This document shows positions 25,751 to 52,382 of a stretch of DNA of 64,000 nt, piece after piece. How positions within the stretch are numbered: the stretch's first letter is position 1; each line of letters starts with the position of its first letter. Made by a program: the position numbers and the translations under genes. The notes below the pieces were generated by a model. It saw only the letters and a program-made list of their open reading frames with translations. It did no database searches and had not been told where the DNA came from. Origin of the DNA: Squalus acanthias (lineage: Eukaryota); NCBI GenBank assembly GCA_030390025.1, contig JASTWF010000034.1, forward strand, positions 2,852,001 to 2,916,000. The letters are read 5' to 3'.

Positions 25751-26652
25751 TCATCCTTTAATGAATTTTACAATCAGAGTAAAGGGATATTTTCCCACAT
25801 TCTTCAACTGCTGTCTAAACTTAGTCTGGGTCACGGCATAAATCCCAGTGTTTGTGCAGCAACTCAGCAGCTGCAGCATGAATCCCAGTTCCATTACATA
25901 ATATGGTATAAATACAGAATTATCCCCCAAATAAAACATCCGGCTCCATATAGAATACACCATAAACATTGCCCATAACAGGATGAAATTGCCGGAGATA
26001 ACAAGCAGTAAAATGATGGATTTCCTGCGGCTCTCCATCTCTGGGTCTCTGGGACACTCCCCACTGCTGGGACCCCGGAGTCTCCTGCGGGCTCTGCTGG
26101 CCACTAAAATGTGTCTGACGGTGACAGCATTGAGCAGCACAATCACCACAAATGGGACACACGGGGTGAGAATATAATGAACGAGCTCGATTGTTCCCCA
26201 GACCCGTGAATTCCGAACATCGATTGTGATATCACAAAACCAGGGCTGGTTCCCATGCCTATACCGACCTCTGAACATAAAATACCAGGTGATGTCCTTT
26301 AAACCGCTCAGCACAGTCACTATTCCCAGAATCACAGCCGCCGTTTTCTCGGTGCAATATTTAGTTTTCAGCTTCTGGCAACAAATGGCCACAAATCGAT
26401 CAAAGGTGAAAGTGACGGTGAACCAGACAGAACAGTCTGTGGCTGCGAACAGCAGGACGGCGTGGATATTACACACGCGGATGGACCACACGAAATCAAG
26501 CTGTTCCTTATAAACAATCGGAATGTGCCTCAATATCAGGTCGAGGATGACGACCAGTAGATCCGCCGCTGCCATGGCCACCAGGTAGCGAGTGACACAT
26601 TTGGAGAGATCACACTTTCCCCGAGACAGGATCACAATCGTTATTAAGTTAA
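25751..26652 (-). CDS. Class A GPCR of the GPR139/GPR142-like family, main coding exon (TM1 second half to C-terminus), intact
   Basis: Acceptor TTCCCTTCCTCACAG|TT at 26653/26652 (phase 1); NLITIVILSRGKC..YLVAMAAADLLV..TFDRFVAIC..RRKSIILL..LSCCTNTGIY..KFRQQL; open to TGA at 25753-25751. Confidence 0.92.
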
Positions 26653-28807
26653 CTGTGAGGAAGGGAAATAAACAGGGAAATTATACATCAGGCTGGGAGC
26701 AAAAGCAGCAGTTTGATGGAATTCGGGGTGAAATCTGCAACTGATAACCGACATTCAATGATATAATCTAATCCTAGTACCTGTGAAGCAAAATACGGAG
26801 CTTATTGTAAGAATAATCGGGAATACATTGTGGAATCAACAAATGAAATGGAATAAATACATTATGAAAGTAACAGATGTTTGATCAAGGAGAGATTAAA
26901 TGATCGATCTAAATTTAGCCCAGCAGACAAAAGCACCGCTCGAGGTACCAGGGACACAAAGGACCAGACCCTCTCAGGAAGCCTTCATGTCCCGGGATCA
27001 GTCAGCATTTGGAGCGGTGCAGTTCGCTTCTGTGTAACTGTGTTAGGGAGGGGGAAATCCCGCTTGGATTCCTGCTCTTGGTTAGAATATCCATTTTATT
27101 TAGAACTGAAAATGAATGCAACAGCAAAATACAGAAACTGCATCCTTGGCATGCAATAATTACAAGCAATTGTATATAAAAGGTACGGATGTAATACGAC
27201 AATGCTAAGATAATAAATACAAGTGCACTGTAGTAATAAAGATAACTGGGTTATCAGATATATTTTGGAGATTGAGTTTACTGCATTTTTGTTGAAATAC
27301 TCAAATTCTAGCTCATTGAAAGGAAGATTTGCCAAGTAACATTGCAAGTAATGGCCTCTGAATTAAAGTAAATAGTGATGATTGACCAGGTAATGTCCCA
27401 CTAAATTCATTTATCAGCATCGAAATCAGCCAACTTAACCCACAGGCAAAGTGCCGCCGAATGCTGTTGTAAAGTATCTGAACACAAATGGAAGAGATTT
27501 ATCCTTGTACTTTTTCACGTGTTGTTTCCAACTTGTGCAGAGAATATTAGACGAGAAGATATCAAAGGATTTTCTTATCCTCAGTGCTTCAGTTACAATC
27601 AGCTGGGAGTATTTATCCTGAAGTACAGCAGGATGCAATAGAGAATCACTCTGGGTCACACTGACAGATCCACTGTACTATGACAGACGGGCATGGGATC
27701 CAATTGTAAATTCAAAACATGATCAGAAAGAAATGTATTGAAATCTGGCTGAATTAACGTTTTGTGAGAATGTAAATTATTCTTGTAATCATACTTTAGC
27801 CATCAGAAGCAGTGCCAATAATGCAGAACTGGAGAGGGTGAAAAAGGAGACACTGACTGGAACTGAATGATTAGCGGATATTTCAGACATTTAAAGATGT
27901 GGATGTGATCTGCCAGGATTTGTTCCTGTGACTCTGTAAGTAACCATACCGAGCATTAGGTGAAAACAAAAGCAAAATACTGCGGATACTGGAAATCTGA
28001 AATTAAAACAGAAAATGATGGAAATACTCAGCGGGTTAGACAGTATCTGTGGAGAGAGAGAGAAACAGAGTTCTAGTTTCAGGTCCATGGCCTTTCGCCA
28101 TTAGGTGAAAAGTCTCCTAAACCAAGACAGCATTCTTCTGACCTGATACAAATGTTCAGTGTCGGTAGCAGATTGAAATTCGTTAAATAAAGAGTCACCT
28201 CCAATAAATTTATTTGAGTTGAATATAGAACATTTTAATGTTGGTAACACAATATCACGATCAGAATCAATAGCTGACAGCAGCGCGGATGGGATGGGGA
28301 ACGACAAAGAGAGAAACACAGTTAAACATGCGGGGGAAAAGCCGGTTGGTTTGCGCCTCCCCTTAGCGCATTCGGGGGCGCTATCCGTGTGCTCGATACT
28401 TAGCGCCCGAGCACGGCTATTTTAGCGCCACTAGCGAAATAGACCAGTCTTTTTGCAGCGGTGCTAAAGAATGCCGCAACGTTCTCCTGCACTCGCAGAT
28501 CGTGACATCATGCGAGAGTGCAACGCCCCGGTAACACCCCGGACCGGATAATGGGTCACGTCCCCTGCCTTTCCGCCTGCCGCTAGGAACGACAGGTAGA
28601 GGGGAACGTTTTCAAGTCAGGAAGGAGCTGTGGGAGCGCTATTTAAAGGCGGCCGCTTCCTGTCTTTTCTTGTCGGCAAAATTTTTGGTACACACAGGTT
28701 GAGAGGGAGACAGACGTCTGGAGAGATTCGACGCTGACCGAAAGAGTTTTGGGTCCTGAGAACAACTTTGGAGGTTCATTTTTATTTCACCTTCCTTCTA
28801 ACGATAT

Positions 28808-29975
28808 ATGGAAGCTTCGATGGTGGCTGCACTAACTCGGGGCTTCTTCATTGTCCAGCTTCACCTTCAGAGACAGCAGAGGCGCAGAGAGACAGTGGCA
28901 AACATTGTCAGAGGGAGGAGGGTCAACAGGCCTCTGCACAGGAGACCTTATCCTCCCAGGGTATTCCGGGAGCAATTCTCCTCCTATATCCATTTGTCTG
29001 AGGAGCAGTGTTTCCAAAGACTGCGGGTCAGCAAGGAGGTGGAAACTGAGCTCTGCCACCTCCTGCAACCAGATCTGCAGCCTTAGTTCAGGATCAGGAC
29101 GTCTCTGTCGATGGCAGTGAAGGTGACAGTGGCTCTGAATTTCGAAGTCAGCTGTCCCTTTCAGACTTCTACTGGGGACATAGTGAATATCTCCCAGTTT
29201 GCTGTTCATTGTTGCATCCAGGAGGTGACAAAGGCTTTGTAGAAGAGGAGACGCCAGTACATCTCTCCCGACGACCCGGGACAAACAGCACAAACGCGCA
29301 TGTGGCTGTGCGAGAATAGTGGGCTTCCCCATGGTTCAGGGCGCCATTGACTACACGCATGTGTCATTGTGGGCAACTTATGACAATGCAGAGGTGTTCC
29401 GAAACCACAAGGGAATCCACTCTCTGAATGTCCAGTTGGTGTGTGACCACAGACAGCTCATCCTCGCCGTCAATGCCCGCTATCTTGGCAGCAGCCACGA
29501 TACTTTTATCCTGCGGCAGACTGGTGTCGCAGACCTTTTCCAACCACCGCATCAACCTAGTGGATGGCTCCTTGGGGACAAGGGTTATCCACTCTGCACC
29601 TGGCTGATGACACCGCTCCATAAACCCAACACCCCTGCCGAGCTGCAATACAATGAGAGCCATAGCTCCACCAGGAACCTCATTGAGCACACGACCGGTG
29701 ACTTGAAACAAAGGTTCCGGTGTCTGGACCACTCAGAGGGAGCCCTGCAGTACTATCCCGAGCAAGTCTCCCTCTTTATTGTTGTGTGCTACATGCTTCA
29801 AAACATTGCAATCATGAGGGCCCAGCTATTGCCACCAGGGATTGGTGCACCACCTGAGGAGGAGGATGAGGAGGAGGTTGAAGAGGAGGATCAGCAGCAC
29901 CAACGTGGCAGGGAGGCGCACCATGTTGCCATTGCAAGGGCTGTCCGTGAATGGCTGATAAGACACCGATTCTAA
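28808..29975 (+). pseudogene. Harbinger DDE transposase (HARBI1-like), disrupted
   Basis: GFPMVQGAIDYTHV, HSLNVQLVCDH, GSSHD, LLGDKGYP, RNLIEHTTGDLKQRFRCL; stop at 29084-29086 and further disruptions. Confidence 0.92.
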
Positions 29976-30269
29976 TCCCTTACTGAGAAGATGGCTTCTG
30001 GGATGAAGAAGCACATCACTGAAAGCATCCCGCACACCATATTGCCGGGCAAAGCTGCAATGATTCAAATCAGGAAAGATGTAAAGTTAGAATTTCTAAA
30101 AATATTTATGTTACAAAATCTGTGTAATTTATTCAGGACAAACAATTAGAAACAGACCCAACAATTCATGAACTAACAAAACTTGTCCTCACAACATGGA
30201 CATAAACGGCAAAACAGTAAACAAATATAATAACAACAACCTCGAACTTTCCAACAAACATTCCCCGAT

Positions 30270-33200
30270 TTATTTACAGAGTCTACTGTTGGCCTTCGAG
30301 GGTGACCTCCATCCCCTGCGCACTTCCCCCTTTCCCACCCTACTGCTCCACCTAATTTGGCTCCACTGTCTGCAGCAAGGCTGGTGGAAGGCTGCTGAAT
30401 GCTGGATCAAGAGATTGCCTTGAAGGACGCCCTCGACCAGCTCTGGGCCTGGAGTGCCCGGCTGCAGACTGCACCAACTCTGCACGGGCGGCAGCAGGCT
30501 GGGCTGGCTGTGTTGCAGGCCGTGCCAAGTGCAATGGGGAAGTGGCGTTGGTGGGACAGGAATGCTGTCAACTTGAGAGTGGGCAGCACCTTCCTGTTCG
30601 ACCGACACACTGCCACTCCCCCGTTGCAGAACCTCAGCATCCGGTGCAATCTGCTCCAGCACAGATTGCTGGCCTGCTGCCGTACCTTGATCTCCCTGAT
30701 GGACGTTGGGTGACCCTGCGAGGATGGCAGTACTCATGCTTGCGTGACATCAATCTGAGACTGCATGACAGCAGTCTGAGACTGGATGGCACCATCCAAT
30801 GACTGAATTGCAGCACTTTGTGATTGCGTTGCGTCGGTCTGTGCTGCAATGGATCGTGCCACCTCACCCATTACACACGGCTCTGGTTCACCACGGTCTC
30901 CCTGCTATTCAACCATCCTCTGCAATGAGGCAAGGATGGGTTCAAGGGCTTGTGCACAGATGACAGCTGTGCTAGCGGTGGACTCCTCCACGCTCCTAGC
31001 CAGTGTATCCATGCTGTCAAGCACCCTTGCCATTGCACCCATCAGCTCAGTGTTCATGCTCAAGGCTTGGGTATTCATGGCCGCGATAAAGAGGTCCTCA
31101 TCCAAGTCCTGTGCAGCAGACCTCGCGCGCCTGCTTCCCTTACCCATGTGGCATTGCTGTAGCCCGCTGGGTCCAGGAGATTCTCCCTCACAGACCCTAA
31201 CACCCTTTTCCCCGCCAGGGAATGCCTGGATCCAGTGTCTGATGTTTCACCCTTGGGAGATGCAGGTGGTGAGCCTCTGGCTTCCTCTTCCTCCTCGACT
31301 AGCAAATTGCTGCCACTAGCAGGCTGAGGGACAGGCTGGTCAGCAGGTGGCTCACTATCTGAAAGCAGGAAGGTGCTAGAGTGGCTTTAGCATAAGCGCA
31401 GGGGGGCAGGAAGGGAGCAAGGACTGGAGACAGTTAGTTGGATTGAAAGTGTAAAAGGCTGGTGTTGTGAGGGTGAAGAGGTGTGAGAGAGGAGAGAAAG
31501 CTGATGAACATACCATTGCTGTCCCAAGGGGGTCGACCTCTCCAGCGGACACTGCACCTATGACCTGGCTGGCAACGATACTGTGCACTCTGTCCTCCAA
31601 CTCAGTCAGGAGGTGTAGGTCCGCCGGTCCTGGTCCCATGCTTTGCTGCTACCGTCTGTTATGAGAGAACTTGGCCTGCAAGAAAAAGGACAGCTTGTGA
31701 GTGAGTGAGTGTGGAGTCATGTGTTTGGCAGATGTGCTTACCATAGTTAAATAGTCGTTATTGTGTGCAGCCATGTGTTTGGCAGATAGAGCCATAGAGT
31801 TATACAGCACAGAAAGAGGGCCTTCGGCCCATCGTGTCCGCGCCCGCCATCAAGCCCTATCTATTCGAATCTCATTTTCCAGCACTTGGTCCGTAGCCTT
31901 GTATGCTATGGCGTTTCAAGTGCACATCCAAATCCTTCTTGAAAGTTGTGAGGGTTCCTGCCTCTACCACCCTTTCAGCCAGTGAGTTCCAGATTCCAAC
32001 CATCCTCTGGGTGATTTGTTTTTCCCTCAAATCCCCTCTAAACCTCCTGCCCCTTACCTTGAAACTATGCTACCTGGTCATTGCCCCCTCTACTAAGGGG
32101 AAAACTTCCTTTCTATCTACTCTATCTATGCCCCTCATAATTGTGTACACCTCAATCAGGTGTCCCCTCAGCCTTCTCTGGTCTAAGGAAAACAATCCCA
32201 TCCTGTCCAGTCTCTCTTCATAACTGAAACGCTCCAGCCCAGGTAACATCCTGCTGAATCTCCTCTGCACCCTCTCCAATGCAATCACATCCTTCCTATA
32301 GTGTGGCGACCAGAACTGCACACAGTATTCCAGCTGTGGCCTAACTAGCATTTTGTATAGCTCCATCATAACCTCCCTACTCTTATATACTATGCCTCGG
32401 CTAATGAAGGCAAGTATCACATATGCCTTCTTAGCCACCTTATCTACCTGTCCTGCTGACTTCAGGGATCTATGTACATGCACACCAAGGACCCTCTGAT
32501 CCTCTGTCCATCCTCGGTTCCTACCATTCATTGTGTATTCTCTTGCCTTGTTAATCCTCCCAAAATGCATCACCTCACACTTTTCAGGGTTAAAATCCAT
32601 TTGCCACTGTTCTGCTCATCTGACCAACCCGTCTATATCGTCCTGTAGCCTCAGGCTTCCCTCCTCGCTATTTACCACTCCACCAATTTTCGTATCATCT
32701 GCGAACATACTGATCATACCTCCTACATTCATATCTAATTCATTAATGTAAATTACAATCAGCAAAAGACCAAGCACCGATCACTGCGGTACACCACTGA
32801 ACACAGGCTTCCAGTTAAAAAAAAAACTTCGACCATCATCCTCTGCCTGCTGCCACTAAGCCAATTTTGCATCCAATGTGCCAAATTGCCCTGGAGCCCA
32901 TGGGCTTTTACCTTCCTGACCAGTCTCCCATGTGCAACTATGTCAAAAGCCTTACTGAAGTCCATGTAGACTACATCAACTGCACTACCCTCATCCACAC
33001 ACCTGGTCACCCACTCGAAAAATTCAATCAAATTGGTTAGACATGATCTCCCCCTGACAAAGCCACGCTGACTATCCTGGATCAATCCTTGACTCTGCAA
33101 GTGGAGACTAATTCTGTCCCTCAGAATTTTTCCAATAATTTCCCTACCACTGATATTAGGTTCACTGGCCTGTAATTCCCTGGTTTATCCCTACTACCCT

Positions 33201-35765
33201 TGTTGAATAATGGTACTATGTTAGCTGTTCTCCAGTCCTCTGGCACCTCCGCTGTGGCTAGAGAGGTTCTGAAAATTTATGTCAGAGCCCCTGCAATCTC
33301 CTCCCTTGCCTTACACAACAGCCTGGGATACATCTTGTCTGGGCCTGTGGATTTATCCACATTTAAGCCCGCTAAAGACCGTTAGTATCGCCACACATTC
33401 AATGCTAAGTTGTTCAATTGTATCACAATCCCCCTGCATGCTATCAATGCCTATATCGTCCTTCTCCATAATGAACAAAGATGCAAAATATTAAATTAAA
33501 ACCTCACCTACATCTTACGGCTCTACATACAGATTGCCACTTTGGTCCCTAATGGGCCCTACTCTTTCCCTGGTTCTTCTCTTGCCCTTAATATACTTAT
33601 AAAACACCTTGGGATTTTACTTTATTTAGACTGCCAGTGTTTTTTCATGACCCCTCTTCGCTGTCCTAATTTCTTTTTTAAGTACCCCCCTGCACTTTCT
33701 GTACACTTCTAGGGCTTCCACTGTTTTTAGTCCTTTGTATCTGCCAAAAGCCTCCCTGTTTTCCTAATCCATTCATGTATATCCCTTCACATCCAGGGTT
33801 CCTTGGACTTGTTGGTCGCACCCTTGACCTTTACGGGAACATGTTGGCGCTGTACCCTTTCTATTTCATTTCTGAATGACTCCCACTGCTCTGATGTGGT
33901 TTTTCCTACAAGTAGCTGATCCCAGTCCATTTTGGCCAGACCCTGCCTTATCATATTAATATCGGCCTTCCCCCAATTTAGAACCTTTATTTCCGATCCA
34001 TCTTTGTCCTTTTCCATGACTACCTTAAATCTCACCGAATTATGGTCACTGTCACCAAAATGCACTCCTACTGACGCTTCTACCTCTTGCCCGCGTACAT
34101 TCCCTAGAATTAGGTCCAGTACTGCCCCCTCTCTTGTAGGACTTTTTACATGCTGGCTCAAAAAGCTCTCCTGGATGAACTTTAAGTATTCCGCACCCTC
34201 TAAGCCTTTCAAACTCTGACTATCCCAGTTAATATTGAGGAAGTTGAAATCCCTTACTATTATTAACCTATTTTTTCTGCACATCTCTGAGATTTGCCTA
34301 CATATCTGTTCCTCTATCTCCCCCAGACTGTTTGGGGGCCTTAGTACACTTCCACCAAAGTGCTTGCCCCCTTTTTGTTTTTAAGGTCTACCCATCGGGC
34401 CTCATTAGAGGAACCTGCTAAGATATCATCCCTCCTTACTGCAGTAATTGACTCCTTGATTAATATTGCGATACCCACTCCTCTTTTACAACCCCTCTGT
34501 CTCGCCTGAAGATTCTATACCCCGGAATATTGAGCTGCCCGTCCTGCCCATCCCTCAACCATGTCTCTGTGATAGCAATACTATCATACTCCCATGTGTT
34601 CATCAACACCTTCAATTCCTCTGCCTTACTCGTAAGACTCCTTGCATTAAAATAAATGCCATCCAGGCTTGCCATAACCCCTTGTGCCGTTACATATTTG
34701 CTCTGGCTTTCAGACTGAGTTGTTCTTTTCTCTATATTTGGCTGTGCATCACCCCCTACTATAGCTCCATTCCGTATCCCATCCCCCTGCCATGTTAGTT
34801 TAAGCCCCCTCCCCCACACCAACAGCACTAGCAAACCTCCCCGCAAGGATGCTGGTCCCTTTCCGGTTCAGGTGCAACCCGTCAGACTAGTACAGGTCCC
34901 ACCTTCCCCAGAAGGATACCCAGTGATCCATCAAACTAAAGCCCTCCCTCCTGAACCAACTCTTTCGCCACACATTCATCTGCTCTATCCTCCTATTACT
35001 ATACTCACTTGCACATGGCACCGGGAGTAATCCAGAGATTACAACCTTTGAGGTCCTGCTTTTGAATCTGCTTCCTAACTCCTTAAATTTGGTTGCAGGA
35101 CCTCATCCCTCTTTCTACCTATGTCGTTAGTGCCAATGTGAACCACGACCTCTGACTGTTCCCCCTTCCCCTTCAGAATGCCCTGCAGCCGTTCAGTGAC
35201 ATCCTTGACCCTGGAACCAGGGAAGCAACCTACGATCCTGGAGTCACCAGGATGTGCCTAGAATAGTTGAACAGCCGTTATTGTGTGCAGCCATGTGTTT
35301 AGCAGATGTGCCTACTATAGTTGATTAGCCGTTACTGTGTGCAGCCATGTTTTTGGCAGTTGTGTCTCCTCTAGTTGAATAGCGATTAATGTGTGCAAGG
35401 TGTGGGATGTGCATGTGTGTTTTATGAGATGGACATAGTTCTTGGATGAGTGTTGGGCATTTGGGTTTGTAAATCCTCTGGGCACAGAGTGGAGTTGAGA
35501 TGGAGGGATGTAGAGGTATTGAAAAGTACGTAATCACCCGAATGAGGTAATTGAACTTCATACGACATTGGGTGTGGGTCCTCGGCATCAGGCTCCTCGA
35601 GCAGATGTGCTGAACCACCTCCCTCCACACCCTTCTAAATTCCCGGGGCAATGGCCTCCTGCCACTCTCTTGGAGCAGCACTGCGCATCGCCGTCCCGCA
35701 GCGCCAACCAGAGCCACCAATGCCTCGTCACTGAAACGCCTAGCTCTTTCTCTGGGCCTCTCCAT
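30270..35765 (-). pseudogene. Harbinger Myb/SANT-like gene: exon 1 35765-~35536, exon 2 31675-31514, exon 3 31358-~30270
   Basis: MERPRERARRFSDEALVALV..W..V..RTHTQCRMKFNYL (SANT/trihelix); acceptors TTGCAG| and TTTCAG|, donor |GTATGT; internal TAG in exon 2. Confidence 0.8.
31786..35248 (-). mobile_element. 5'-truncated CR1 LINE (esterase end, EN, RT, 3' UTR) in the Harbinger Myb intron
   Basis: YFNARSL, AITETWL, SDHN, DFSKAFD, RPQLEYCVQFWSP; CTCTAT-type tail near 31790; flanked by a ~54-bp intronic tandem repeat. Confidence 0.92.
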
Positions 35766-35799
35766 CACTTAGAATTAATAACTGGACATAGATCCTTAC

Positions 35800-35890
35800 T
35801 AGGAACATCAACAGCAGTGAGGAGGGGATAGTACATATTTTGTATATCATAACACATTCCTAATATCCTGAGCACTTCTCCCCAATCCAT
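35800..35890 (-). CDS. GPCR first coding exon A (MDWGEVLRILGMCYDIQNMYYPLLTAVDVP)
   Basis: ATG at 35890; family-type YYPLL.A..VP followed by phase-1 donor A|GTAAGG; joins exon 26652 in frame (330 aa). Confidence 0.75.
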
Positions 35891-36017
35891 TCTGTGGGTG
35901 TCTCGTGGTCTTTGTGCTGGGGGAAGCGCGCTGACTGTGTGAGGTGACACAGTGAAGGAAATCTTCTTAGTTAGAGCAGAGGGAAATAACCAAGTGACAT
36001 CATTAGGCCTCACTGTA

Positions 36018-36061
36018 ACTGGCATTAATTACAGTCATTGAACAAACAGACTCATTGAACC
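36018..36061 (-). promoter_or_regulatory. Conserved upstream element of exon A (homeodomain- and forkhead-like cores)
   Basis: 37/44 identity to 52614-52657, at a similar distance upstream of exon B. Confidence 0.65.
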
Positions 36062-36234
36062 ACTGTCACCACAGCACTTTACTGCAACACAATCTAGCTC
36101 ACATTATTGTACACAGTTTTAAATTAAAAGTGAGCGAATACGCACTATTTCATCTGCCCATAAACATAAGAATATAAGGATTAGGAGAAGGAGTAGGCCA
36201 TACGGCCCTTCGAGCCCTTCATTGAATGAGATCA

Positions 36235-36692
36235 TGGCTCAGTTGGTAGCACACTCGCCTCTCAGTCAGAGGTTATGTGTTCAAGTGCCCACTCCAGGGA
36301 ATTGAGCCCATAAATCTAGACTGACACTCCAATGTAGTAATGAGGGAGTGCTGCACTGTTGGAGGTGCCGTCTTTCGGGTGAGACGTTAAACCGAGGCCC
36401 CGTCTGCTCTCTCAGGTGGACGGAAAAGATCCGATTGCACAAATTCGAAGAACAGTACAGGAGTTATCTCCGGTGTTCTGGCCAATATTTATCCCTCAAT
36501 CAATATAAAAGAAACAGTTTATCTGGTCATTATCACGTTGCTGTTTCTGGGAGCTTGCTGTGCGCAAATTGGCTGCCGCGTTTCTCACATTACAACAGTG
36601 ACTACACTGCAAAAGTATTAATTGACTGTAAAACGCTTCGAGACGTCTGGTGGTCGTGAAAGGCGCTATATAAATGTAAGTCTTTCTTTTTA
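36235..36692 (+). mobile_element. Deu-domain tRNA-derived SINE (SacSINE1-like)
   Basis: A box TGGCTCAGTTGG, B-box-like GTTCAAGT, body GAGACGTTAAACCGAGGCCCCGTCTGC, tail GAAAGGCGCTATATAAATG. Confidence 0.8.
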
Positions 36693-36713
36693 TTTAATTT
36701 TAGACATTGCAAT

Positions 36714-39240: not shown

Positions 39241-39268
39241 TTAACCTGTTACCTCTCTAACTTTTTCC

Positions 39269-40798: not shown

Positions 40799-41455
40799 CT
40801 AGATTACATTGCTCCCACCTCAATCCAGGAATTTCATTCCCAGGGCGGCCTAGATTACACTGCTCCACCTCAATCCAGGAATTTCATTCCCAGGGCCGCC
40901 TAGATTACACTGCTCCCGCCTCAGTACAGGAATTTCTTTCCCAAGGCCGCCTAGATTACACTGCTCCTGCCTCAATCCAGGAATTTCATTCCCAGGGCCG
41001 CCTAGTTTATACTGCTCCCACCTCAATCCAGTAATTTCATTCCCTGGACTGCCTAGTTTACACTGCTCCCGCCTCAGTCCAGGAATTTCATTCTCAGGGC
41101 TGCCTAGATTACACTGCTCCCGCCTAAATCCAGGAACTTAATTCACAGGGCTGCCTAGATTACACTGCTCCTGCCTCAGTCCCGGAATTTCATTCCCAGG
41201 GCTGCCTAGATTACACTGCTCCCACCTCAGTCCAGGAATTTCATTCCCAGGGCTGCCTAGATTACACTGCTCCCGCCTCAGTCCAGGAATTTCATTGCCA
41301 GGGCTGCCTAGATTACACTGCTCCCACCTTAGTCCAGGAATTTCATTCCCAGGGCCGCCTAGATTACACTGCTCCTGCCTCAATCCAAGAATTTCTTTCC
41401 CAGGGCCGCCTAGATTACTCTACTCCCAACTCAGTACAGGAATTTCATTCTCAGT
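40799..41455 (+). repeat. 51-bp minisatellite, 13 units (CTAGATTACACTGCTCCCGCCTCAGTCCAGGAATTTCATTCCCAGGGCTGC)
   Basis: Units start at about 40799, 40850, 40900 ... 41410. Confidence 0.93.
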
Positions 41456-41859
41456 TAATTTCTCTATTGCCTGAAAATAGAAGAAGAAGAAGAAGAAGAA
41501 GAAGAGTGACCTTACCCAGACAAAGATGTCATCGTGTTTGACTGAGGGGAAGAATAATTAAAAGGAGCAAAGGATTAAAACGAAGGGATGAAAGGAAAAC
41601 ACTTAAAATATTAACCAATTAGATAAATACGCTGTAAGCACCCCAATACTCCATGAAACTCTCTGGAAACATTAAATTCTCGCATAATCATACTCACAGA
41701 ACCATACCTGTCAGTCAACATTCCCAAACCCTCCATCACCATTCCAGGGTCTGCACAGACCCACCAGAGGTGGGGAACAGGTGTATACAATCGGGAGGGA
41801 GAAACCCTGTGAGTCCACAACATTGCCTGAGGATATAATGAAGTCTGATGGCTTCCAGT

Positions 41860-42290
41860 CAGACATGGGCAAGGTAACTTCCTGCCGATTACCACCTACC
41901 GCCCTCCTTCAGCTGATGAATCGGCACATCTTCATGCTGAACACCAGTTGATGGGAGCACCGAGAGAAGAACGGGCGCAAATTATACTCTGTGTCGGGAG
42001 GGGGAAACTTCAATGTCCATCACCAATAGTGCCTGGGAAGTACCATCATTAACCGAGCCCTGAAGAACACAGCTGCCAGACTGGGATTGCGGCAGGTGGT
42101 GGGAGATCTAAGATGAGAGAAAAGCCTGCTTGACCTCGTCCTCACCAATCTATCTATCGCATATGCATCTGTCCATGACGATATTGGTAGGACTGACCAC
42201 TGCACAATATTTGTGGAGAATAAGTCTCGCCTTCACCCTGAGGCCACCCTCCATCATATCATGTGCATCTACCATGGTGATCAATGGAAT
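41860..42290 (+). mobile_element. Degenerate LINE endonuclease fragment
   Basis: TTYRPPSADES, G.FNVHH, LDLVLTN and DH-like remnants. Confidence 0.55.
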
Positions 42291-42467
42291 GAAATTAGAC
42301 AGAGCCAAGCGATCCCAACACATCAAATTATTTCAAAGCTTTCAAATCCTGTTGTGAATGGTAATGAACAATTGAGCCATTTCCCCATAGCCCTGAAAAT
42401 TTCTCCTTTTCAAGTTTGCATCCAATTACCTTTTGGAAATTACAGTTAAGAAAGGATGAAATAATTG

Positions 42468-43275
42468 AATTCATAGAGCGCTTTTCACGATCTTGGGATG
42501 TCCCAAAGCGCTTTCAAGCCAATTACGTCCTTCCTGTTGAAGTGAAGTCACTGTTGTACTGTAGAAAACGTGGCAGCCAATTTGAGCACAACAAGCTCCC
42601 ACAAACAGCAACGTGATAATGAACAGATAATAAGCTTTAATGATATTGATTGAGATAAATATTGGCCAGAACACTGGGGTTAATTCTGCTGCTCTTCTTC
42701 AATAAAATTCCATGGGATCTTTTCATCCAACTTATAGAACAGAAACATTTAACGTCTCATCTGGGACATAGCACCGCTGACAGTGCAGTGCTCCCTCAGT
42801 ACTGCCCCTCTGATAGTGCAGTGCTCCCTCAGTACTGCCCCTCTGACAGTGCAGTGCACCCTCAGTACTGCCCCTCTGACAGTGCAGTGCTCCCTCAGTA
42901 CTGCCCCTCTGACAGTGCAGTGCTCCCTCAGTTCTGCCCTTCTGACAGTGCAGTGCTCCCTCAGTACTGCCCCTCTGACAGTGCAGTGCTCCCACAGTAC
43001 TGCCCCTCTGACAGTGCAGTGCTCCTTTGGTACTGCCCCTCCGACAGTGCGGTGCTCCCTCAGTACTGTCCCTCTGACAGTGCAGTGTTCCCTCAGTACT
43101 GCCCCTCTGACGGTGCAGTGCTCCCTCAGTACTGCCCCTGTGACAGTACAGTGCTCCCTCAGTACTGCCCCTCTGACAGTGCAGTGCTCCCTCAGTACTG
43201 CCCCTCTGACTGAGATGCGCTCCCTCAGTACTGCCCCTCCAACAATGCAGCACTCCCTCAGTACTGGCTTGAGTG
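42468..43275 (-). mobile_element. Deu-type SINE whose internal 33-bp segment is amplified into a minisatellite (~42778-43265, ~15 units)
   Basis: 42468-42770 is the reverse complement of the SINE body at 36380-36690; unit GACAGTGCAGTGCTCCCTCAGTACTGCCCCTCT. Confidence 0.85.
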
Positions 43276-43309
43276 CAGTTTGTCATGGAGTGCAGCATGG
43301 AACCGAGTG

Positions 43310-46300
43310 TTAAGATGCGAGTCTGGTGAGTGAGGGAGTTCAGGGAGGGATGTGTTCCTTTCTTTTTCTGTTTTTGTCAGCTTCCAAGACCTGGTCAGTA
43401 TTTCTACAATCTAAACGTTAAAGTACAAGTAAGGTCTCGAGATTAGAGCAAGTTGTGTTTACAGGGAAGTAAGGTACCTAATGTATTTAATATTCTTTAA
43501 CTTAAAGGTAGTAAATTAAGGGTAGGACATGGCAGGGCAGCTCGGCAGCGTGGAGTGCTCCTCCTGTGCTATGTTGGAAGTCAGGGACACTTTAGGTGTC
43601 CAGGGCGAACAAATGTGCAGGAAGTGTCTCCAGCTGCAGCTACTCGAAATCCGCTTTTCGGAGTAGGATCTGCGACTGGAGTCAATGTGGAGCATCCCCG
43701 AAGTTGAGATCTTCGTGGATAGAACGTTTAACGAGGTGGTCACAACGCAGGTAAAGAGTGTACAGGCAGATAGGAAATAAATGACCGCCAGACAGTGTAA
43801 AAGAACTAGGAAGGCAGTGCAGGAGTCCCCTGGGTCCATCTACCTCTCCAACAGATTTTCCGTTTTGGATACTGATGGGGGAAATGGTTTCTCAGGGGAA
43901 TGCAGCAAGAGCAAAGTCCGTGGCACTACGAGTGGCTCAGCACCACAGGAGGGGGTGAAAAGAGTTGGAGAGCAATAGTGATTGGGGATTCTATCGTAAG
44001 GGGAACAGATAGATGTTTCTGTGGCCGCAGACGTGACTCCAGGATGGTATGTTGCCTCCCTGGTGCCAGGTTCAAGGATGTCACTGAATGGCTGCAGGGT
44101 ATTCTGAAGGCGGATGGCGAACTGTCAGAGATCGTAATCCACATTGGTATCAACGACATGGGTAGAAAGAGGGATGAGGTCCTGCAACAAGAATTTAGGG
44201 AGCTAGGTAGCAGATTAAAAAGCAGGACCTCAAAGGTTGTAATCTCTGTTTTACTCCCGGTGCCACGTGCTAGTGAGTATTGGAATAGGAGAATAGAGCA
44301 GATGAATGCGTGGCTAAAGAGTTGGTGCAGGAGGGAGGGCTTTAGTATCCTGGATCACTGGGTCTGCTTCTGGGGAAGGTGGGACCTGTACAAATCGGAC
44401 GGAATGCACCTGAACCGGAACGGGACCAACATTCTTGCGGGGAGATTTGCTAGTACTATTCGGGGGGCGGGGGGGGGGCGGTGCTGGGGTCGGGGGTGTT
44501 AATCTAGCTTGGCAGGGGGATGCGATACGGAGTGGAGCTATAGTCGGGGGTGATGCACAACCAAATATACAGGAAAAAAATAGTCAGCCTGGAAGGCAGA
44601 GCAAATATGTAACGGCACAAGGGGTTATGGCAAGGCTGGAAGGCAATCATTTTAATGCAATGAGACTTGCGAGTAAGGCAGATGAATTGAACGTGTTGAT
44701 GAACACATGGGAGTATGATATTGTTGCTATCACAGAGACATAGTGGAGGGAGGGGCAGGACTGGCAGCTCAATTTTCCAGGATATAGATTATTCAGGCGA
44801 GACAGAGCAGGGTGTAAAAGAGGAGGGGTGTCGTAATATTAATCAAGGAGTCAATTACTGCTGTAAGGAGGGATGATATCTTAGCAGGTTCCTCTAATGA
44901 GGCCATATGGGCAGAACTTAACAACAAAAAGTGAGCAAGCACTTTGCTGGGAGTGTACTACAGGGCCCCAAACAGTCAGGGAGAGATAGATGAACATATA
45001 TGTAGGCAAATCTCAGAGAAGTGTCGAAATAATAGGGTAATAATAGTAGGGGATTTCAACTTCCACAATATCAACTGGGATAGTGAGAGTGTGAAAGGCT
45101 TAGAGGGTGCGGAATTCTTAAAGTGCATCCAGAAGAGAGTTTTGAGCCAGCATGTTGAAAGTCCTACCAGACAGGGGGCGGGTCTGGACCTAATCTTAGG
45201 GAATGCAGCTGCGCAAGTGGTGGAAGTGTCAGTAGGAGAGCATTTTGGTGACAGTGACCATAATTCGGTGAGATTTAAGGTAGTCGTGGAAAAGGACAAA
45301 GAAGGACCGGAAATAAAGTTTATAAATTGGGGAAATGCCGAATTTAATATGATAAGGCTGGATCTGACCAAAGTGGAGTGGATCAGCTATTTGTAGGAAA
45401 ATCCACATCAGAGCAGTGGGAGTCTTTCAGAAAGGAAATAGAGAGTGTACAACGCCAACATGGTCCCGTAAAGGTCAAGGGTGGGACCAACAAGCCCAGA
45501 GAACACTCGATGTCAAGGGACATGCAAGAATGGATTAAGAAAAAAAGGGAGGCTTTTGGCAGATAAAAATGACTAAAAACAGTGGAAGCCCTAGAGGAGT
45601 ATAGAAAGTGCAGGGGGTCATTTTAAACGAAATTAGGAGAGCGAAGAGGGGGCATGAAAAAAACACTGGTGGGCTGAAAAAAGGAAAATCCCAAGGTGTT
45701 TTATAAGTATATCAAGGGCAAGCGGAAAACCAGGGAAAGAGTAGGGCCCATGGGGGACCAAAGTGGCAATCTGCGTGTAGAGCCGGAAGATGTGGGTGTG
45801 TTTTCAAATGAATATTTTGCAGCTATGTTCACTATGGAGAAGGATGATGCAGGCATAGAAATCAGGCAGGGGGATTGTGATAAACTTAAACAAATTAGTA
45901 TTGAGAGGGAGGACGTACTAGCGGTTTTAGTGGGTATAAATTTGGATAAATCACCAGGCCCAGACGAGATGTATCCCACGCTGCTGTGTGAGGCAAGTGA
46001 GGAGATTGCAGGGGCTGTGACACAAATTTTCCGAACCTCTCTGGTCACAGGGGAGGTGACAGATGACTGGAGAACAGCTAACGTATACCATTATTCAACA
46101 AGGGTAGTAGGGATAAACCAGTGAATTACAGGCCAGTGAGCCTAACATCAGTGGTAGGGAAATTATTGGAAAAAATTATGAGGAACAGAATTAGTCTACA
46201 CTTGGAGAGGCAAGGATTAAATAAGGATGTTCAGCATGGCTTTGTAAGGGGGAGATCACTTCTAACCAATTTGATTGAATTTTTCGAGGGGGTGACTCGG

Positions 46301-47527
46301 TGTGTGGATGAGAGTAGTGCAGTTGATGCCGTCTACATGGACTTCAGTAAGGCTTTTGACAATGTCCCACATGGGAGACTGGTCAAGAAGGTAAGAGCCC
46401 ATGGGATCCAGGGCAATTTGGCACATTGGATCCAAAATTTGTTTCGTGGCAGGAGGAATAGGGTGATGGTCGAAGGTTGTTTTTGTGACTTGAAGCCTGT
46501 GACCATTGGTGTACCGCAGGGATCGGTGCTGGGTCCTTTGCTGTTTGTAGTGTGCATTAATGATTTAGATATGAATGTAGGAGGTATGATCAGTAAGTTC
46601 GCAGATGACACGAAATTGGTGGAGTGGTAAATAGTGAGGAGTGAAGCCTCAGACTACAGGACGATATAGACGGGTTGGTTAGATGGGCAGAACAGTGACA
46701 AATGGAATTTAGCCCTGAAAAGTGTGAGGTGATGCATTTTGGGAGGAATAACAAGGCAAGGGGATAAACATTGAATGGTAAGACCCTAGGAAGTACAGAG
46801 TATCAGAGGGACCTTGGTGTGCATGTACATAGATCCCTGAAGGCAGCAGGACAGGTAGATAAGGTGGTTAAAAAGGCATATGGGATACTTGCCTTCATTA
46901 GTCGAGGCATAGAATATAAGTGCAGGTAGGTTGTGTTGGAGACGTACAAAATGCTAGTTAGGCCACAGCTGGAATACTGTGTGCAGTTCTGTTCGCCACA
47001 CTATCGGAAGGATGTGATTGCATTGGAGAGGGTGCAGAGGAGATTCACCAGGATGTTACCTGGGCTGGAGCGCTGCAGCTATGAAGAGAGACTGGACAGG
47101 CTGGGGTTGTTTTCCTTAGAGCAGAGAAGGCTGAGGGGGGACCTGATTGAGGTGTACAAAATTATGATGGGCATAGATAGGGTAGATAGAAATACATTTT
47201 CCCCTTAGTAGAGGGGACAATAACCAGGGCGCATAGTTTCAACGTAAGGGGCAGGAGGTTTAGAGGGGATTTGAGGAAAATCTTTTTCATCCAGAGTGTG
47301 GCTGGAATCTGGAACTCACTTCCTGAAACGGTGGTAGAGGCAGGAACCCCCACAGCATTCAAGAAGCATTTAGATGAGCATTTGAAACGCCACAGCATAC
47401 AAGGCTACGGACCAAGTGCTGGAAAATGGGAATAGAATAGATAGGGCCTGATGGCCGGCGCGGACACAATGGGCGGAAGGGCCTCTTTCTGTGCTGTATA
47501 ACTATAACTATCGATGACTCTATGACA
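43310..47527 (+). mobile_element. Near full-length degenerate CR1 LINE (5' UTR, ORF1 from ATG 43529, ORF2, tail)
   Basis: MAGQLGSVECSSC..CRKC zinc finger, IVIGDSIVRG/DGMHLN esterase, EN, RT FADD; tail GATGACTCTATGAC; many stops. Confidence 0.93.
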
Positions 47528-47529
47528 GC

Positions 47530-50500
47530 GCATCATTTCAAAGTTTGAAAATGACAGAAAACGCGGAAATGTTAATAAACAGTGAGAATGATAGTAACAG
47601 ACTTCAGGAGGACGCAGACAGACTGGTGAAATGGGCAGACACATGACAGATACAATTTAACACATAGAAGGGTGAAGTGATACATGTTGGCAGGAAGCAT
47701 GAGCAGAGGCAATATAAACTAAACGGTACAATTTCAAAGCGGGTGCACGATCAGAGAGATCTGGTGTGTACTACACAAATCTTTGAAGTTGACAGGACAA
47801 GTAGCGATGGCTGTTAATAAAGCATAAGGAGTCCTTAGCTTTACAAAGAGAGACACAGAGTAACACAATCCAGGTAGAAATGTTAACCTATTAAAAAGCA
47901 TTGGTTAGACCCCAGCTGGAGTATTGTGTCCAATTCTGAGCACCACACTTTGGCAAGCATGTCAAGGATTAGAGAAGGTGTACAGGAGTTTTACCAGAAT
48001 GGTACCAGGGATTTGGGACTTCAATTACGTGGAGAGTCAGGAGAAGCTGGGATTGTTCATTTTAGAGCAGCGAAGGTTAAGAATCACAGAATCGTAGAAT
48101 CATAGAAATCTACGGCACAGAAGGAGGCCATTTGGCCTATTGCATCTGCGCCGGTCGAAATAGAGCTTTCCAGCCTAATCCGACTTTCCAGCTCTTGGTC
48201 CGTAGCCCTGTAGGTGATGGCACTTCAAGTGCATATCCATGTACGTTTTAAACGTGATGAGGGTTTCTGCCTCTACCACCCTTTCAGGCCTTCAGTTTCA
48301 GACCCGCACCGACCTCTGGGTGAAACAAATTCTCCTCATCTCCCATCTAATCCTTCTACCAATTACTCTAAATCTATTCTCCTTGGCTATTGACCTCTCT
48401 GCCTGGGGAAATAGGTGCTTGCTATCCACTCTATCTCGGCCCCCCATAATTTTATACACCTCAATTTAATCTCCCCTCAGCCTCCTCTGTTCCAATGTAT
48501 AGAACCCCAGACTATTCTCCAGTCTTGGCAACATCCACGTAAATCACCTCTATAACGGCTCGACTGCAATCACATCTTTCCTGTAATGTTTTGACCAAAA
48601 TTGAACGCAGTATTCCAGCTGTGGCCTAATTGGTGTTTTATACAGTTCTAGCATAAACTCCCTTGCTTTTATATTCTTTGCTTCGGCTAATAAAGCAACG
48701 TATTGGTGGACAAGGGTGGACATATGAGGAGAGGTTGAGTAGATTGGGACTCTACTCATTGGAGTTCAGAAGAATGAGAGGCGATCTTATTGAAACATAT
48801 AAGATTGTGAAGGGGCTTGAACGGGTGGATGCGGTAAGGATGTTCCCAAGGATGGGTGAAACTAGAACTAGGGGCATAATCTTAGAATAAGGGGCTGCAC
48901 TTTCAAAACTGTGATGAGGAGAAACTTCTTCACTCAGAGGGTAGTAGGTCTGTGGAATCTGCTGCCCCAGGAAGCTGTGGAAGCTACATCATTAAATAAA
49001 TTTAAAATAGAAATAGACAGTTTCGTAGAAGTAAAGGGAATTACGGGTTACGGGGAGCTGGCAGGAAATTGGACATGAGGCTGAGTTCGGATCGGTCAAG
49101 GCCCTGTGGGTGGCGGAGCGGGCCCAGGGGCTGAGTGGCCGGGTCCTGCTCCTACTTCTTATATTCTTTAGATTTGAGGTTAGGATCAGATCAGCCATGA
49201 TCTTATTGAATGGCGGAGCAGGCTCGAGGGGCCGATTGGCCTACTCCTGCTCCTATTTCTTATGTTCTTATATTATTATGTTCTTATCCCACATGCCTTT
49301 TTAACTACCCTATCTAAATATCTTGATAGTTTTAGAGATATGTGGAAATGTACTCCAAGGTCCCTCTGTTCCACTGCACCTCTCAGTATCCTACCATTTA
49401 TTGTGTATTCCTTTTTTTTCGCCCGCCACAAATGCATTACCTCACACTTCTCCGAAATGAAGTCCATTTGCCACTGTTCTGCCCACCGGACCAGTCCATT
49501 GATATCTTCCTGCAGTCTACAGCTTTCTTCCTCACTATCAACCACACGGCCAATTTTTGTATCATGTGCAAACTTCTTCATCATGTCCCCAACATTGAAG
49601 TCGAAATCATAGATATCTATCACAAATAGCAGGGGACCTAGTACTGAGCCCTGTGGAACCCCACTGGAAACAACCTTCACGTCACAAAGAACACCCATCG
49701 ACCATTACGACCTTTGCTTCCTGCCACTGAGCCAATTTTGGATCCAACTTGCCACTTTCCCTTGAATCCAATGACCAACCTGTCATGTGGGACCTTGTCA
49801 AAGGCCTTACTAATATCTACGTGGACTACATCAAATGCACTCCCCTCATCGACCCTCCTCAAAAAATTCAATCAAGTTAGTTAGACACGACCTTCCCTTA
49901 ACATTACCACGCTGACTGTCCTTGTTTAATCTGTGCCTTTCTAAATGCCGATTTATACTGCCCCTCAGAATTTTTCAATATTTTTTCCACCACCAAGGTT
50001 AGTCTGACTGCCCTGTAATTACTCGGTCTATCCCTTTCTCCCTTTTTAAATGTGGTACAACATTAGCAGTCTTCCAGTCCTCTGTCATCACGCCTGTAGC
50101 CAGAGAGGATTGGAAAATGATGGTCTGAGCCTCCGCTATTTCCTCCCTTAAAAGGCTGGGATACATTTCATCCGACCCTCGTGATTTATCTAATTTCAAA
50201 GATGCTAAGCACCTTAATGTTTCCTCTCTCACTATGTTTATCTCATCTAATATTTCACACTCCTCCTCCTTAACTACAATGTCTGCATCATCTCACTCTT
50301 CTGTGAAGACAGACACAAAGTATTTTTTTAGAACCATGTCCACGTCTTCCGCCTCTACACACAGATTACTTTTTGGTCTGTAATAGGCCATACTCTTTCC
50401 TTAGTTATCCTCTTGCTCTTGATGTATGTATAAAATATCTTTGGGTTTTCCTTGATTTTACATGCCAATATTTTTTCATGCCATCTCTTTGCTTTCCTAA

Positions 50501-51215
50501 TTTACTTTTTAATTTCACCCCTGCACTTTCTATACTCCTCTAGGCTTTCTGTAGTATTGAGCTCTCGGTATCTGACAAAAGCTTCCCTTTTTTCCCCCTT
50601 ATCCTACCTGTATTCCCCTTGACATCCAGGGAGCTCTGGATTTGGAAGTCCCATCCTTTATCATTTTGGGAATATATTTGCTCTGAGCCCTCACTATCTC
50701 CTCGTTGAATGCTTCCCACGGATCCGAACTGATTTCCAATTAAGAAGCTGTTTCCAGTCCACTTTTCCTAAATTTCATCTCAGCTTAGTAAATTTGGCCT
50801 TTCGCCAATTGAAAACTTTTAAACCTGGTCTTTCTTTGTCCTTTTCCATTAGGGGAGATTTAGTATAGATATTCCAGATTGTAATGGGTTTTGATAGAGT
50901 AAGTAAGTCGGTTTCCAGAGGCAGAATGGTGGGTAACCAAAGGAAACACATTTAAAGTAATTGGCAAGAGAACCAGAGGAGAGATGATAATTTTCTTTAC
51001 GCAGTGAGTTGTGATCTAGAATGTACTGACTGAGAACGTGGTGGAAGCAGATTCAATAGTAAATTTCGAAAGGGAATGGGGTAATTAGATGAAGGGGAAT
51101 TTTATATGGGGCACTGATGAAAGAGTAGGACTGAATTGATAACTCTTTCAAAGAGACGGCATGGACACGATGGGCCGAATGCCCTCCGTCTGTGATGTAC
51201 CGTTCTATGATTCTA
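47530..51215. mobile_element. Nest of CR1 fragments: + 47530-48085, - 48085-50850 interrupted by a young + 3' end (~48705-49283), + 50850-51215
   Basis: CR1 RT and C-terminal motifs in ORFs 48663, 49276, 49677 and 49999; several CR1 tails. Confidence 0.85.
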
Positions 51216-51419
51216 TGAGCAAGAGACAGAGAGAGAGAGAAGAGGGAGAGAGGAGGGGTAGAGAGAGATAATGGGAGAAGGAGAGAAATAAAAATAGAGA
51301 CTGAAAGACAGGGAGAGGTACAGAGGGAAAGAAATTAACTTTAAAAGGGGAATTGGATAAATACCTGAAGGGGAACAATTTGCAGGACTATGGCAAAAGA
51401 GCAAGGGAATGGGACTAAT

Positions 51420-51915
51420 TGCAGGAGTCAGGCCATGGTGGGATTTGAACATGAGGAGCAGAATATTTAAATCGAGTTGTTGCCGGATCGGCAGCCAATG
51501 TTGGTCAGTGATCACAGGGGTGATGGGTGAACGGGACATGATATGTGTTAGGATATGGGCAGCAGAGTTTTGGATGAGCTCTAGTTTATGGAGGCTTGTT
51601 ACTGGGAAGCCGGCCAGGAGAGCATTGGAATAGTCGTGTCTGGATTTAGCACAGGCACGGATGAGGGTTTATGCAGTGGAAGGGCTGAGGTGGAGCGGAG
51701 ATGGGTGAAATTTTGGGGGTGGTAGTCGGCAGGACTGGTGATTCAGAGGATATGAGTTCGGAACTCAGCTCAGGGACAAAGAGATCGCAGAGGTTGCAAA
51801 CAGCCTGGTTCAGCCTCAGACATTGACCAGGGAGGGGGACTGAATCGGTAGATAGAGAATGGAGTTTGTGACGAGGACCGAAGACAATGGCTTCGCTCTT
51901 CCCAAAATTTTAATG
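51420..51915 (-). mobile_element. L2-clade LINE fragment
   Basis: SRSPITPVITDQHWLPIRQQLDLNILLLMFKS motif. Confidence 0.75.
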
Positions 51916-52159
51916 ACAAAAACAGTAATTCAGTGAAACGTGATTTACAGATCCAATTTCTGGATATAGAGACATACTGGGACACCAACAGCAGCAAAGA
52001 ATGAAGAATAGTAATACAGTTAGCAAAGGTTTACAGGGTTAATAGCTGGATAGAGAGACTTACAAGGAACAACAACTGCAGCAATGAGGGGAGAGTAAAT
52101 GACACGAACAGTAATACAGTAACACATGGTTAACAGAATAGCTGGATAGAGAGACCTAC

Positions 52160-52382
52160 CAGGCACACCAACTGCAGCAAGGAGCGGATAGTAAATGTAT
52201 TGGATAATCAGAAGTGCCAACTCTATCCGATTTTCTAATGGGATTCTATCATAATATTCTGAAAGAAAGTCAAACGCCCAGCTGAAACTCCTGCCCATTG
52301 ATGTAGTATTCCAATCTACTGTTCTCAGATTCTGATCCATTGTTGTAACATTCCAATCTACTGTTCTCAGATTCTGATCCAT
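52160..52382 (-). CDS. GPCR first coding exon B (MDQNLRTVDWNVTT...IQYIYYPLLAAVGVP)
   Basis: ATG 52382 in ACAATGG context; YYPLLAAVGVP then phase-1 donor G|GTAGGT; joins exon 26652 to give GVPVNL (374 aa). Confidence 0.82.

Follow-up and report, generated by a model that had tools for sequence, protein, structure and literature searches.

The question raised by this locus of the shark Squalus acanthias is whether one G-protein-coupled receptor (GPCR) can be made with either of two N termini. Within the window, the whole 64,000-nucleotide stretch of DNA that we analyzed, two first exons (A and B) lie upstream from a single seven-transmembrane (7TM) exon, and a preliminary description proposed, as its main idea, promoter-selected N-terminus switching of the kind known from protocadherin and UGT1 genes. 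Our results do not support that idea. Only the far exon, B, stays intact, and so exon A has probably been left behind to decay and does not switch the receptor tip; we infer that A is a relic and B the working first exon (Table 1).

The gene structure itself was as first described, including the coordinates, reading frames, and splice signals of both first exons. Exon A is 91 nucleotides long (30 codons plus one phase-1 base) and exon B 223 (74 codons plus one base), and either can be joined in frame to the 7TM exon at the acceptor TTTCCCTTCCTCACAG/TTAAC at 26652, giving receptors of 330 (A) or 374 (B) amino acids. A tblastn search of the window found no second 7TM exon, in agreement with the earlier statement, and the interval between 52160 and 26652 is free of assembly gaps. 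The proposed homology between the DNA upstream from A and that upstream from B was borne out (local score, 95; the highest of 300 shuffles reached 42), as was the replacement of G by D in the GVP motif of exon A (G28D). Exon B encodes 14-amino-acid N-glycosylation-sequon repeats, which form a hypervariable ectodomain, and the first half of TM1; of the two degenerate copies of its end, the first terminates in an in-frame donor, CCTT/GTAAGT, at 52064. The 7TM exon contains the 7tm_1 domain (PF00001; 78.3 bits against a Pfam cutoff of 30.5). A 500-N gap (58892-59391) forms the center of a ~90-kb inverted near-copy, either an allelic duplicate or a young inverted duplication, which carries a second A and a 7TM exon that is 99.7% identical just outside the window.

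TABLE 1. Features of the two-first-exon receptor locus (positions within the window)
Feature	Position	Strand	Remarks
Single 7TM exon, beginning with the second half of TM1 and ending at the stop	25751..26652	-	Class A GPCR, GPR139-like shark family
Rest of Harbinger-type element	28337..31600	.	DDE_Tnp_4 transposase fragment at 29229-29975 (+)
Myb/SANT-like frame, Harbinger-type transposon	35328..35766	-	Weak Pfam hits, below cutoff
Exon A, 30 amino acids, short first-exon class, open in window copy	35800..35890	-	Phase-1 donor CCTA/GTAAGG
Exon A promoter-like region with 5' UTR	35891..36100	-	TATA-like box altered in window copy
Two degenerate tandem copies of the B exon end	51960..52159	-	Directly past B
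Exon B, coding part, 74 amino acids	52160..52382	-	Phase-1 donor CCTG/GTAGGT
Promoter-like region of B	52420..52700	-	TATA-like TATTAATAAG at 52520-52511 and duplicated 51-nt motif block
Inverted near-copy of left arm, start	59392..64000	+	Mirrors 43821 downwards, after 500-N gap

Exon pairing across the surrounding cluster argues against a choice among first exons. A contiguous 1.864 Mb contains 21 7TM exons, 18 of which have a B exon, arranged as B-A-7TM in 11 cases and with B only in 7; of the three without B, two have an assembly gap just upstream from A, and the third carries a stop and lacks any first exon. Units in gap-free DNA hold at most two first exons, B stands at about 1:1 with the 7TM exons, and no A-only gene was found in the gap-free units of the 1.86-Mb cluster. 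The B-A-7TM order recurs on two contigs in 10 other units, and these units are ~80 to 93% identical where compared. Three B-only units retain a stump of the A promoter (36239-35993), and the remaining ones resume at differing points (31202, 27161, and 26922); the B-only genes have lost A by deletion. The preliminary description suggested counting first exons against 7TM exons across the genome, and the totals, which are calibrated estimates, come to ~370 acceptors, 250 B exons, and 100 A exons, with first exons not in excess.

The integrity of exon B supports its role as the working first exon. It is intact in all 21 copies in contiguous DNA and in 40/40 copies of a similarity-picked set, with no stops observed where 7.5 would be expected under neutrality. 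Its TM1 half is under purifying selection (pN/pS, 0.11 to 0.20; on distinct variants, 0.18 to 0.20, with p ~0.001). Copies of A and of B are related and gene converted; the counts here and below therefore lack independence, and the p-values err on the optimistic side. The promoter-like region of B is about half as variable as its flanks (14 copies). A B-type first-exon end was seen in 70 of the 86 homologue models with a recognizable end, from four other sharks, which points to B as the native partner of the 7TM exon. Of 120 models, this typing excluded 2 that were fused and 6 in which the anchor motif was absent, and the regular expression misassigns several rows (P0118 belongs to the short type, and P0036, P0099, and P0110 resemble truncated B).

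The alternative that survives best, possible but doubtful in our judgment, is that some of the genes still make genuine, if minor, use of A as an alternative promoter and first exon, by which a short, sequon-free 30-amino-acid N terminus would replace the glycosylated B ectodomain of 60 to 100 amino acids on the same receptor core. The record of A across the family speaks against this: A evolves neutrally and has been broken and deleted repeatedly, and B has not. Six of 14 copies of A in contiguous DNA are broken (ATG lost, stop gained, or frame shifted) and 8 are open; in the similarity-picked set, 12/31 are broken, by at least four separate lesions, and the ATG is lost in 7/31. Stops are at the neutral expectation (2 observed, 2.3 expected), pN/pS on distinct variants is 0.83 to 0.98, and non-CpG variants per site number 0.279 in A coding sequence, compared with 0.302 for controls from introns and transposons (P = 0.40), tests whose power is low because the exon has only 30 codons. 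Radical changes in TM1 (G>D in 10/31 copies, as well as P>S/H, L>P/H, and Y>C) fall at positions that are nearly fixed across 57 homologues. The A peptides are near-identical between copies, next to hypervariable B peptides, and the gap-free units of the cluster include no A-only gene. In the window, the copy of A combines G28D with an altered TATA-like box, TAACTAAG (35973-35966), and 9 nucleotides are absent 5' of its ATG. The A at position -1 of the donor was considered as a further sign of decay and rejected; 3/12 intact short-class exons carry it.

Several features nevertheless fit a minor promoter. Most copies (19/31, the window copy included) keep the ATG, an open frame, and the GT donor; the GT is present in every sampled copy, the TATA-like CTAAATAAGG is readable in 25/31, and the match of the A donor to U1 equals that of the window's B donor (8/11 each). 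A second in-frame ATG at codon 19 could rescue many of the copies without the first, pairwise pN/pS is 0.60, below 1, and the promoter of A is weakly conserved. Selection on A could be weak because the copies are redundant. Short first exons are the normal functional type in other clusters, and in a sawshark model (P0059) the first exon is short, has an A-type junction, and is joined to a 7TM part that groups near this clade, with weak support (the trees are quick and unrooted, with many open forks, and vertebrate GPR139/142 rows are absent from them). A precedent for GPCR N termini chosen by promoter is GPR35, a class A GPCR and a single gene with demonstrated transcripts, whose N-terminus length is reported to be set by promoter use and splicing; those isoforms differ by a 31-amino-acid extension and not by the exchange of paralogous TM1-bearing exons that a functional A would entail (PMC9450150). 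In its broadest form, which we consider unlikely, ~100 members of a shark-specific family of several hundred diversifying GPR139-like receptors would carry a captured sister-subfamily promoter and first exon, amounting to a family-wide N-terminus switch spliced inside TM1. The choice would then be between a long, glycosylated, hypervariable tip and a short, constant one, maybe in an unrecognized chemosensory or immune repertoire.

It is improbable that the coding role of A is dead while its promoter persists as an intronic enhancer or noncoding start that tunes or silences the gene. Among the segments of A, variability falls below that of controls in the core promoter only (0.18 versus 0.30), and its motif block is family-wide, common to the promoters of B and of the short-class exons. 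Statistically this is a marginal result (P = 0.045 before correction for the four segments compared), since values as low occur in 2 of 38 control windows, and the distal promoter and UTR segments evolve neutrally. Most of the A promoter is missing from B-only genes whose 7TM exons are intact.

We favor the explanation that A is an orphan exon, probably carried along in ~100 duplicated genes, and that B likely serves as the working first exon. In this account a short-class paralogue contributed a promoter-exon fragment that came to occupy intron 1 of a B-type ancestor, either because the fragment was inserted there or because the gene body that belonged to it was deleted; the B-A-7TM unit would next have been amplified by segmental duplication, and A would have drifted. 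Transcription would start from the B promoter, splicing from 52160 to 26652 would skip A, and A would have no role as an internal exon. The diversity of the receptors would then reflect how many genes there are and how much their B ectodomains and outer loops vary, and exon choice would not contribute. All 12 short-class exons sampled elsewhere in the genome are intact and are closer to A than to B in the alignment, matching A at ~70% over 310 nucleotides. The preliminary description had kept an orphan exon from a deleted paralogue as its fallback; that part is the better supported, with A as the orphan, but the orphaning was not local, since it predates the copying of the B-A-7TM unit to roughly 100 copies.

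The intron sequence of A ends after 30 nucleotides at the ATG of the Harbinger Myb frame, which lies ~35 nucleotides past the donor, and a rearrangement breakpoint probably lies at ~35770-35766. Two ideas about this neighborhood were rejected. Carriage of A as independent Harbinger cargo is contradicted by free Harbinger copies without A and by the placement of A in contiguous DNA, where each copy has the same orientation and lies downstream from B or beside a gap. A promoter of A that drives a domesticated Myb gene is at odds with early frame-shifting deletions (8 and 14 nucleotides) in 2/4 aligned copies. A three-exon B-A-7TM mRNA was likewise discarded as improbable, since it would contain the TM1 half twice.

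In a search of sequencing runs, none was on record as RNA, and none contained half of the 7TM exon words (largest share, 0.43). For the X1, X2, X5, and X19 contigs at 80% likeness on 25745-36100, transposon contigs swamped the picture; in these transposon-swamped data, the joint from 35800 to 26652 was not among the best 15 of 492 joints listed, nor was a loose end at 26652 among the best 24 of 7335 listed, and these absences weigh neither for nor against the use of A. Depth over exon A was low in three presumed-RNA runs, which we do not count as evidence. One X2 contig (386 nucleotides; depth, 5.6; 35691-36068) runs unspliced across the A donor into Harbinger, a hint that the junction between A and Harbinger is present outside the assembly.

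In the clustered protocadherin and UGT1 loci, constant exons are single and variable exons are many and maintained. A locus of that type, with several variable first exons and one constant 7TM exon, is very improbable here and is already largely refuted. The likeness consists of separate homologous putative promoters, each ahead of a first exon that is predicted to be able to join the shared acceptor, together with one B-A(broken)-B run ahead of a gap (C2671:2536507-2557188). The shark locus differs in having one B per 7TM exon and no variable-exon bank: duplication affects the entire unit, the 7TM exon also exists in many, variable copies, the exon that does not vary is A, and of the two first exons one is decaying; the limit of two first exons per unit and the genome-wide totals given above point the same way. 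An assembly artifact, in which a 7TM exon belonging to B once lay between B and A but was dropped or collapsed, is barely credible, given the gap-free interval and the same order in 10 other diverged units on two contigs, even though cluster gaps are bordered by duplicates 98 to 99.6% identical.

A parallel may also be drawn with the OR, V1R, and TAAR clusters, which undergo birth-and-death evolution. The shark family belongs to a different GPCR lineage but, like them, has expanded in tandem into clades specific to a species, includes pseudogenes and orphan fragments, varies on its extracellular surfaces, and has a promoter motif in common among its members. GPR139/142 probably have a phase-1 split in TM1 as well. 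In humans, GPR139 is conserved and present as one gene, whereas the shark members number in the hundreds and have variable outer loops; human GPR139 gave the best sequence match to a solved structure over the whole 7TM exon (PDB 7vug and 9m42; E, 1.4e-7), a distant one. Models named "probable G-protein coupled receptor 139" from Heptranchias perlo, Heterodontus francisci, Pristiophorus japonicus, and Scyliorhinus torazame belong to the same family, with 55 to 80% identity over the 7TM exon among the 120 matches listed. They have the same YYPxL...GVP/VN junction and, in most, a B-type repeat N terminus; all are automatic gene models with one N terminus each. An open literature search found no paper on the family or its layout; supplements and subscription papers may mention the family.

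If our preferred reading is true, the locus offers a clean case of an orphan exon hitchhiking through the expansion of a gene family. It would also carry a warning: gene predictors that take the nearest first exon would misassign the N terminus of ~100 receptors and therefore leave the hypervariable ectodomain out. Use of A, by contrast, would mean that a whole GPCR family can exchange its ectodomain through promoter choice. Classical odorant-receptor repertoires are regarded as small in sharks, yet this genome contains an estimated several hundred GPR139-like genes with a shared promoter motif and an excess of amino acid change in the outer loops, on the outer face of the receptor. The family itself, with its hundreds of GPR139-like members and their diversifying outer loops, is of more interest than the question of exon A.

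The B-A-7TM arrangement, in which a long first exon (B), a short one (A) and one 7TM exon follow each other on one strand, is real and family-wide. The exon positions in the preliminary description were correct, and both first exons join the acceptor in frame; it had found no other 7TM exon between A and B, and the window indeed holds none; the sole assembly gap lies outside the gene. The homology that it had noted between the DNA upstream of A and that upstream of B is beyond chance. Use of the A-7TM or the B-7TM junction is what we infer from the sequence. The 7TM exon encodes a class A GPCR (PF00001); among solved structures, GPR139 matches it best (E 1.4e-7). Its database relatives number 2482 at E<=1e-30, the closest being shark models labeled "probable G-protein coupled receptor 139"; all 120 relatives among the matches listed (of 2482) belong to four shark genera.

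Features of the window, in window coordinates
Feature	Coordinates	Strand	Length	Details
LTR retroelement	524-4964			192-nt LTRs 98% identical; gag/pol-like frames fragmented; absent from mirror arm
GC-rich minisatellite	21500-25700		~27-nt unit	right after 7TM stop codon; common to paralogues
7TM exon	25751-26652	-		acceptor at 26652
Exon A	35890-35800	-	91 nt	ends CCTA/GTAAGG; joined to acceptor 26652, 330 aa
Motif block, A promoter	36060-35960
51-nt array	40799-41454			in shared intron scaffold
33-nt array	42777-43266			in shared intron scaffold
Exon B end and donor repeats	52159-51960			triplicated, degenerate
Exon B	52382-52160	-	223 nt	ends CCTG/GTAGGT; joined to acceptor 26652, 374 aa
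B N-terminal repeats	52295-52416		42-nt unit	mostly one N-x-T/S sequon each
Motif block, B promoter	52680-52500
CT-rich array	56550-58890			long; upstream of B
Assembly gap	58892-59391

In the 3.7-Gb assembly that holds the window (G000:C2671:2852001-2916000), all 131 scored matches to the 7TM exon showed 83-100% identity. Annotation by tblastn, combined with a profile of first-exon ends built from 57 homologues, covered 1.464 Mb surrounding the window plus 0.4 Mb of another cluster contig (C3707). A B exon lay upstream in 18 of the 21 7TM exons in this DNA, 11 as B-A-7TM and 7 as B-7TM, and A was located between B and the 7TM exon in every case. Two of the three 7TM exons without B had A and then immediately an assembly gap, and the third carried a stop and had no first exon. 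A 7TM exon was missing for another three B exons and for one broken A, all of which lie before gaps. A run of B, broken A and B on one strand, followed by a 200-N gap, was seen at G000:C2671:2536507-2557188 on the window's contig; the ectodomain sequence of its second B is identical to that of the B at C3707:900581.

We consider it probable that B is the single working first exon and that A is an amplified relic. Broken copies made up 6 of 14 A exons in contiguous DNA (ATG changed to ATA in three, a stop in two, a frameshift in one) versus 0 of 21 B exons, and 12 of 31 versus 0 of 40 in a larger, similarity-picked set, where four or more distinct lesions account for the broken copies. The 30 A exons that remain when the frameshifted copy is omitted had, counted as distinct variants, 11 synonymous and 35 nonsynonymous changes (pN/pS 0.83-0.98). 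For B, the final 12 codons in 40 exons had 11 and 5, respectively (pN/pS 0.18-0.20, p about 0.001), and the direct contrast of A and B over those codons gave p=0.044, values that are optimistic because of common ancestry and gene conversion among copies; pN/pS of the B ectodomain was 1.1-1.5 (pairwise, 1.63). Stops were as frequent in A as 2 observed versus 2.3 expected, and in B 0 versus 7.5. Non-CpG variants per site reached 0.279 in A coding DNA versus 0.302 in intron and transposon controls (10 non-redundant units). These patterns indicate that B, unlike A, is being maintained.

It is possible, though we think it unlikely, that A serves as a minor alternative promoter: A has a pairwise pN/pS of 0.60, its copies are mostly still open, and GT is kept in every sampled copy, results that count against a relic. 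Also against a relic, most copies have a second ATG at codon 19, and variability in A's 70-nt core promoter was 0.18, below controls (P=0.045 uncorrected), with 2 of 38 control windows equally low. The window's own A is open, but its TATA-like box is altered and 9 nt are deleted before the ATG; the reported D for G in this exon was confirmed (G28D) and puts a charge within TM1 at a position that is G in 51 of 57 homologues. Survival of A as a regulatory remnant is improbable.

Genome-wide, exact patterns matched 251 acceptors, 191 B donors and 50 A exons; control patterns gave 0 matches. Scaled by sensitivity in annotated DNA (15/22, 16/21 and 7/14, respectively), rough genome estimates are 370, 250 and 100, counts that may be inflated by allelic duplicates in the assembly. 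Since first exons are not in excess over 7TM exons, the protocadherin-like system suggested earlier, with promoter-selected first exons spliced to a constant exon, fails and is very improbable.

An inverted near-copy of about 90 kb is centered on the window's gap. Its identity is 98-99.5% in long unique blocks close to the gap and about 95% at greater distance; it starts within the B-A intron and includes a second A plus a 7TM exon that is 99.7% identical. The window's B-A-7TM gene is unaffected by it, and that the layout is an artefact is hardly credible. A direct duplicate of about 24 kb (G000:C2671:1739705; 99.4-99.6% identical) ends exactly at another gap, which makes allelic duplication plausible and suggests that both gap-flanking duplicates are allelic. 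The A region (35790-36090) is 96% identical to C2671:1194642-1194941, 1.7 Mb away, with the 9-nt deletion in common, and 91% identical to its twin across the gap (C2671:2923477-2923785), although the twin's flanks are 97-99% identical; gene conversion is the likely cause.

Searching the genome with a short N-terminus from Heptranchias gave 150 scored matches, all stop-free (1018 candidates), of which almost none lay on the cluster contigs studied. The 12 fetched were all intact first exons of 32-35 aa, and all aligned better to A than to B (at best 215 of 308 positions, from the promoter through UTR and exon to the start of the intron), which places A in the short class. The match between A and family exons stops at 35770, ~30 nt past the exon end, and from 35766, at the Myb ATG, the sequence is homologous to free Harbinger-type transposon copies; in three such copies the upstream DNA bears no relation to A. 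A rearrangement breakpoint here would have cost A its own intron and the transposon its 5' end. The rest of the intron scaffold is common to B-only units, three of which keep an A promoter stump (36239-35993), while in others alignment resumes at 31202, 29998, 27161 or 26922. These stumps and differing resume points indicate that the subfamily ancestrally had A and that several deletions removed it; A may have come by insertion, or else been stranded when its own gene was deleted.

B-type N-termini occurred in 70 of 86 typed models from four other sharks (Heptranchias perlo, Heterodontus francisci, Pristiophorus japonicus and Scyliorhinus torazame), and their N-terminal repeats were also seen there. 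In quick trees the Squalus acanthias copies formed a group to themselves (support 83-91), and most models from each of the other sharks clustered by species. A quick, unrooted tree placed five sawshark short-exon models with an A-like junction in a separate, well-supported 7TM clade of 9 rows; another such model (P0059) fell weakly near the Squalus acanthias clade.

A, B and short-class promoters have in common a motif block that contains a TAATTA core and a TATA-like box, in the order GTTTGTTCAGTGACTGTAATTAATG, TTCCCTC, TATA-like box. The short-class first exons that have it belong to clusters located on other contigs, and B promoters have two or three tandem copies of it. Predicted B exons range among paralogues from 46 to about 100 aa, mainly in 14-aa steps. 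In several B copies the frame is open as far as a second donor, 96 nt on, which, if used, would add 32 hydrophobic residues.

Among 13 intact 7TM exons, pN/pS was 1.82 in extracellular stretches versus 0.51 in the rest, from pairwise counts with boundaries drawn by eye. The receptor family, which includes paralogues on C2671 and C3707, numbers several hundred members and shows excess amino-acid change both in these stretches and in the B ectodomain. Searches of the open literature returned no description of it. This shark family is a candidate for an unrecognised chemosensory or immune repertoire.
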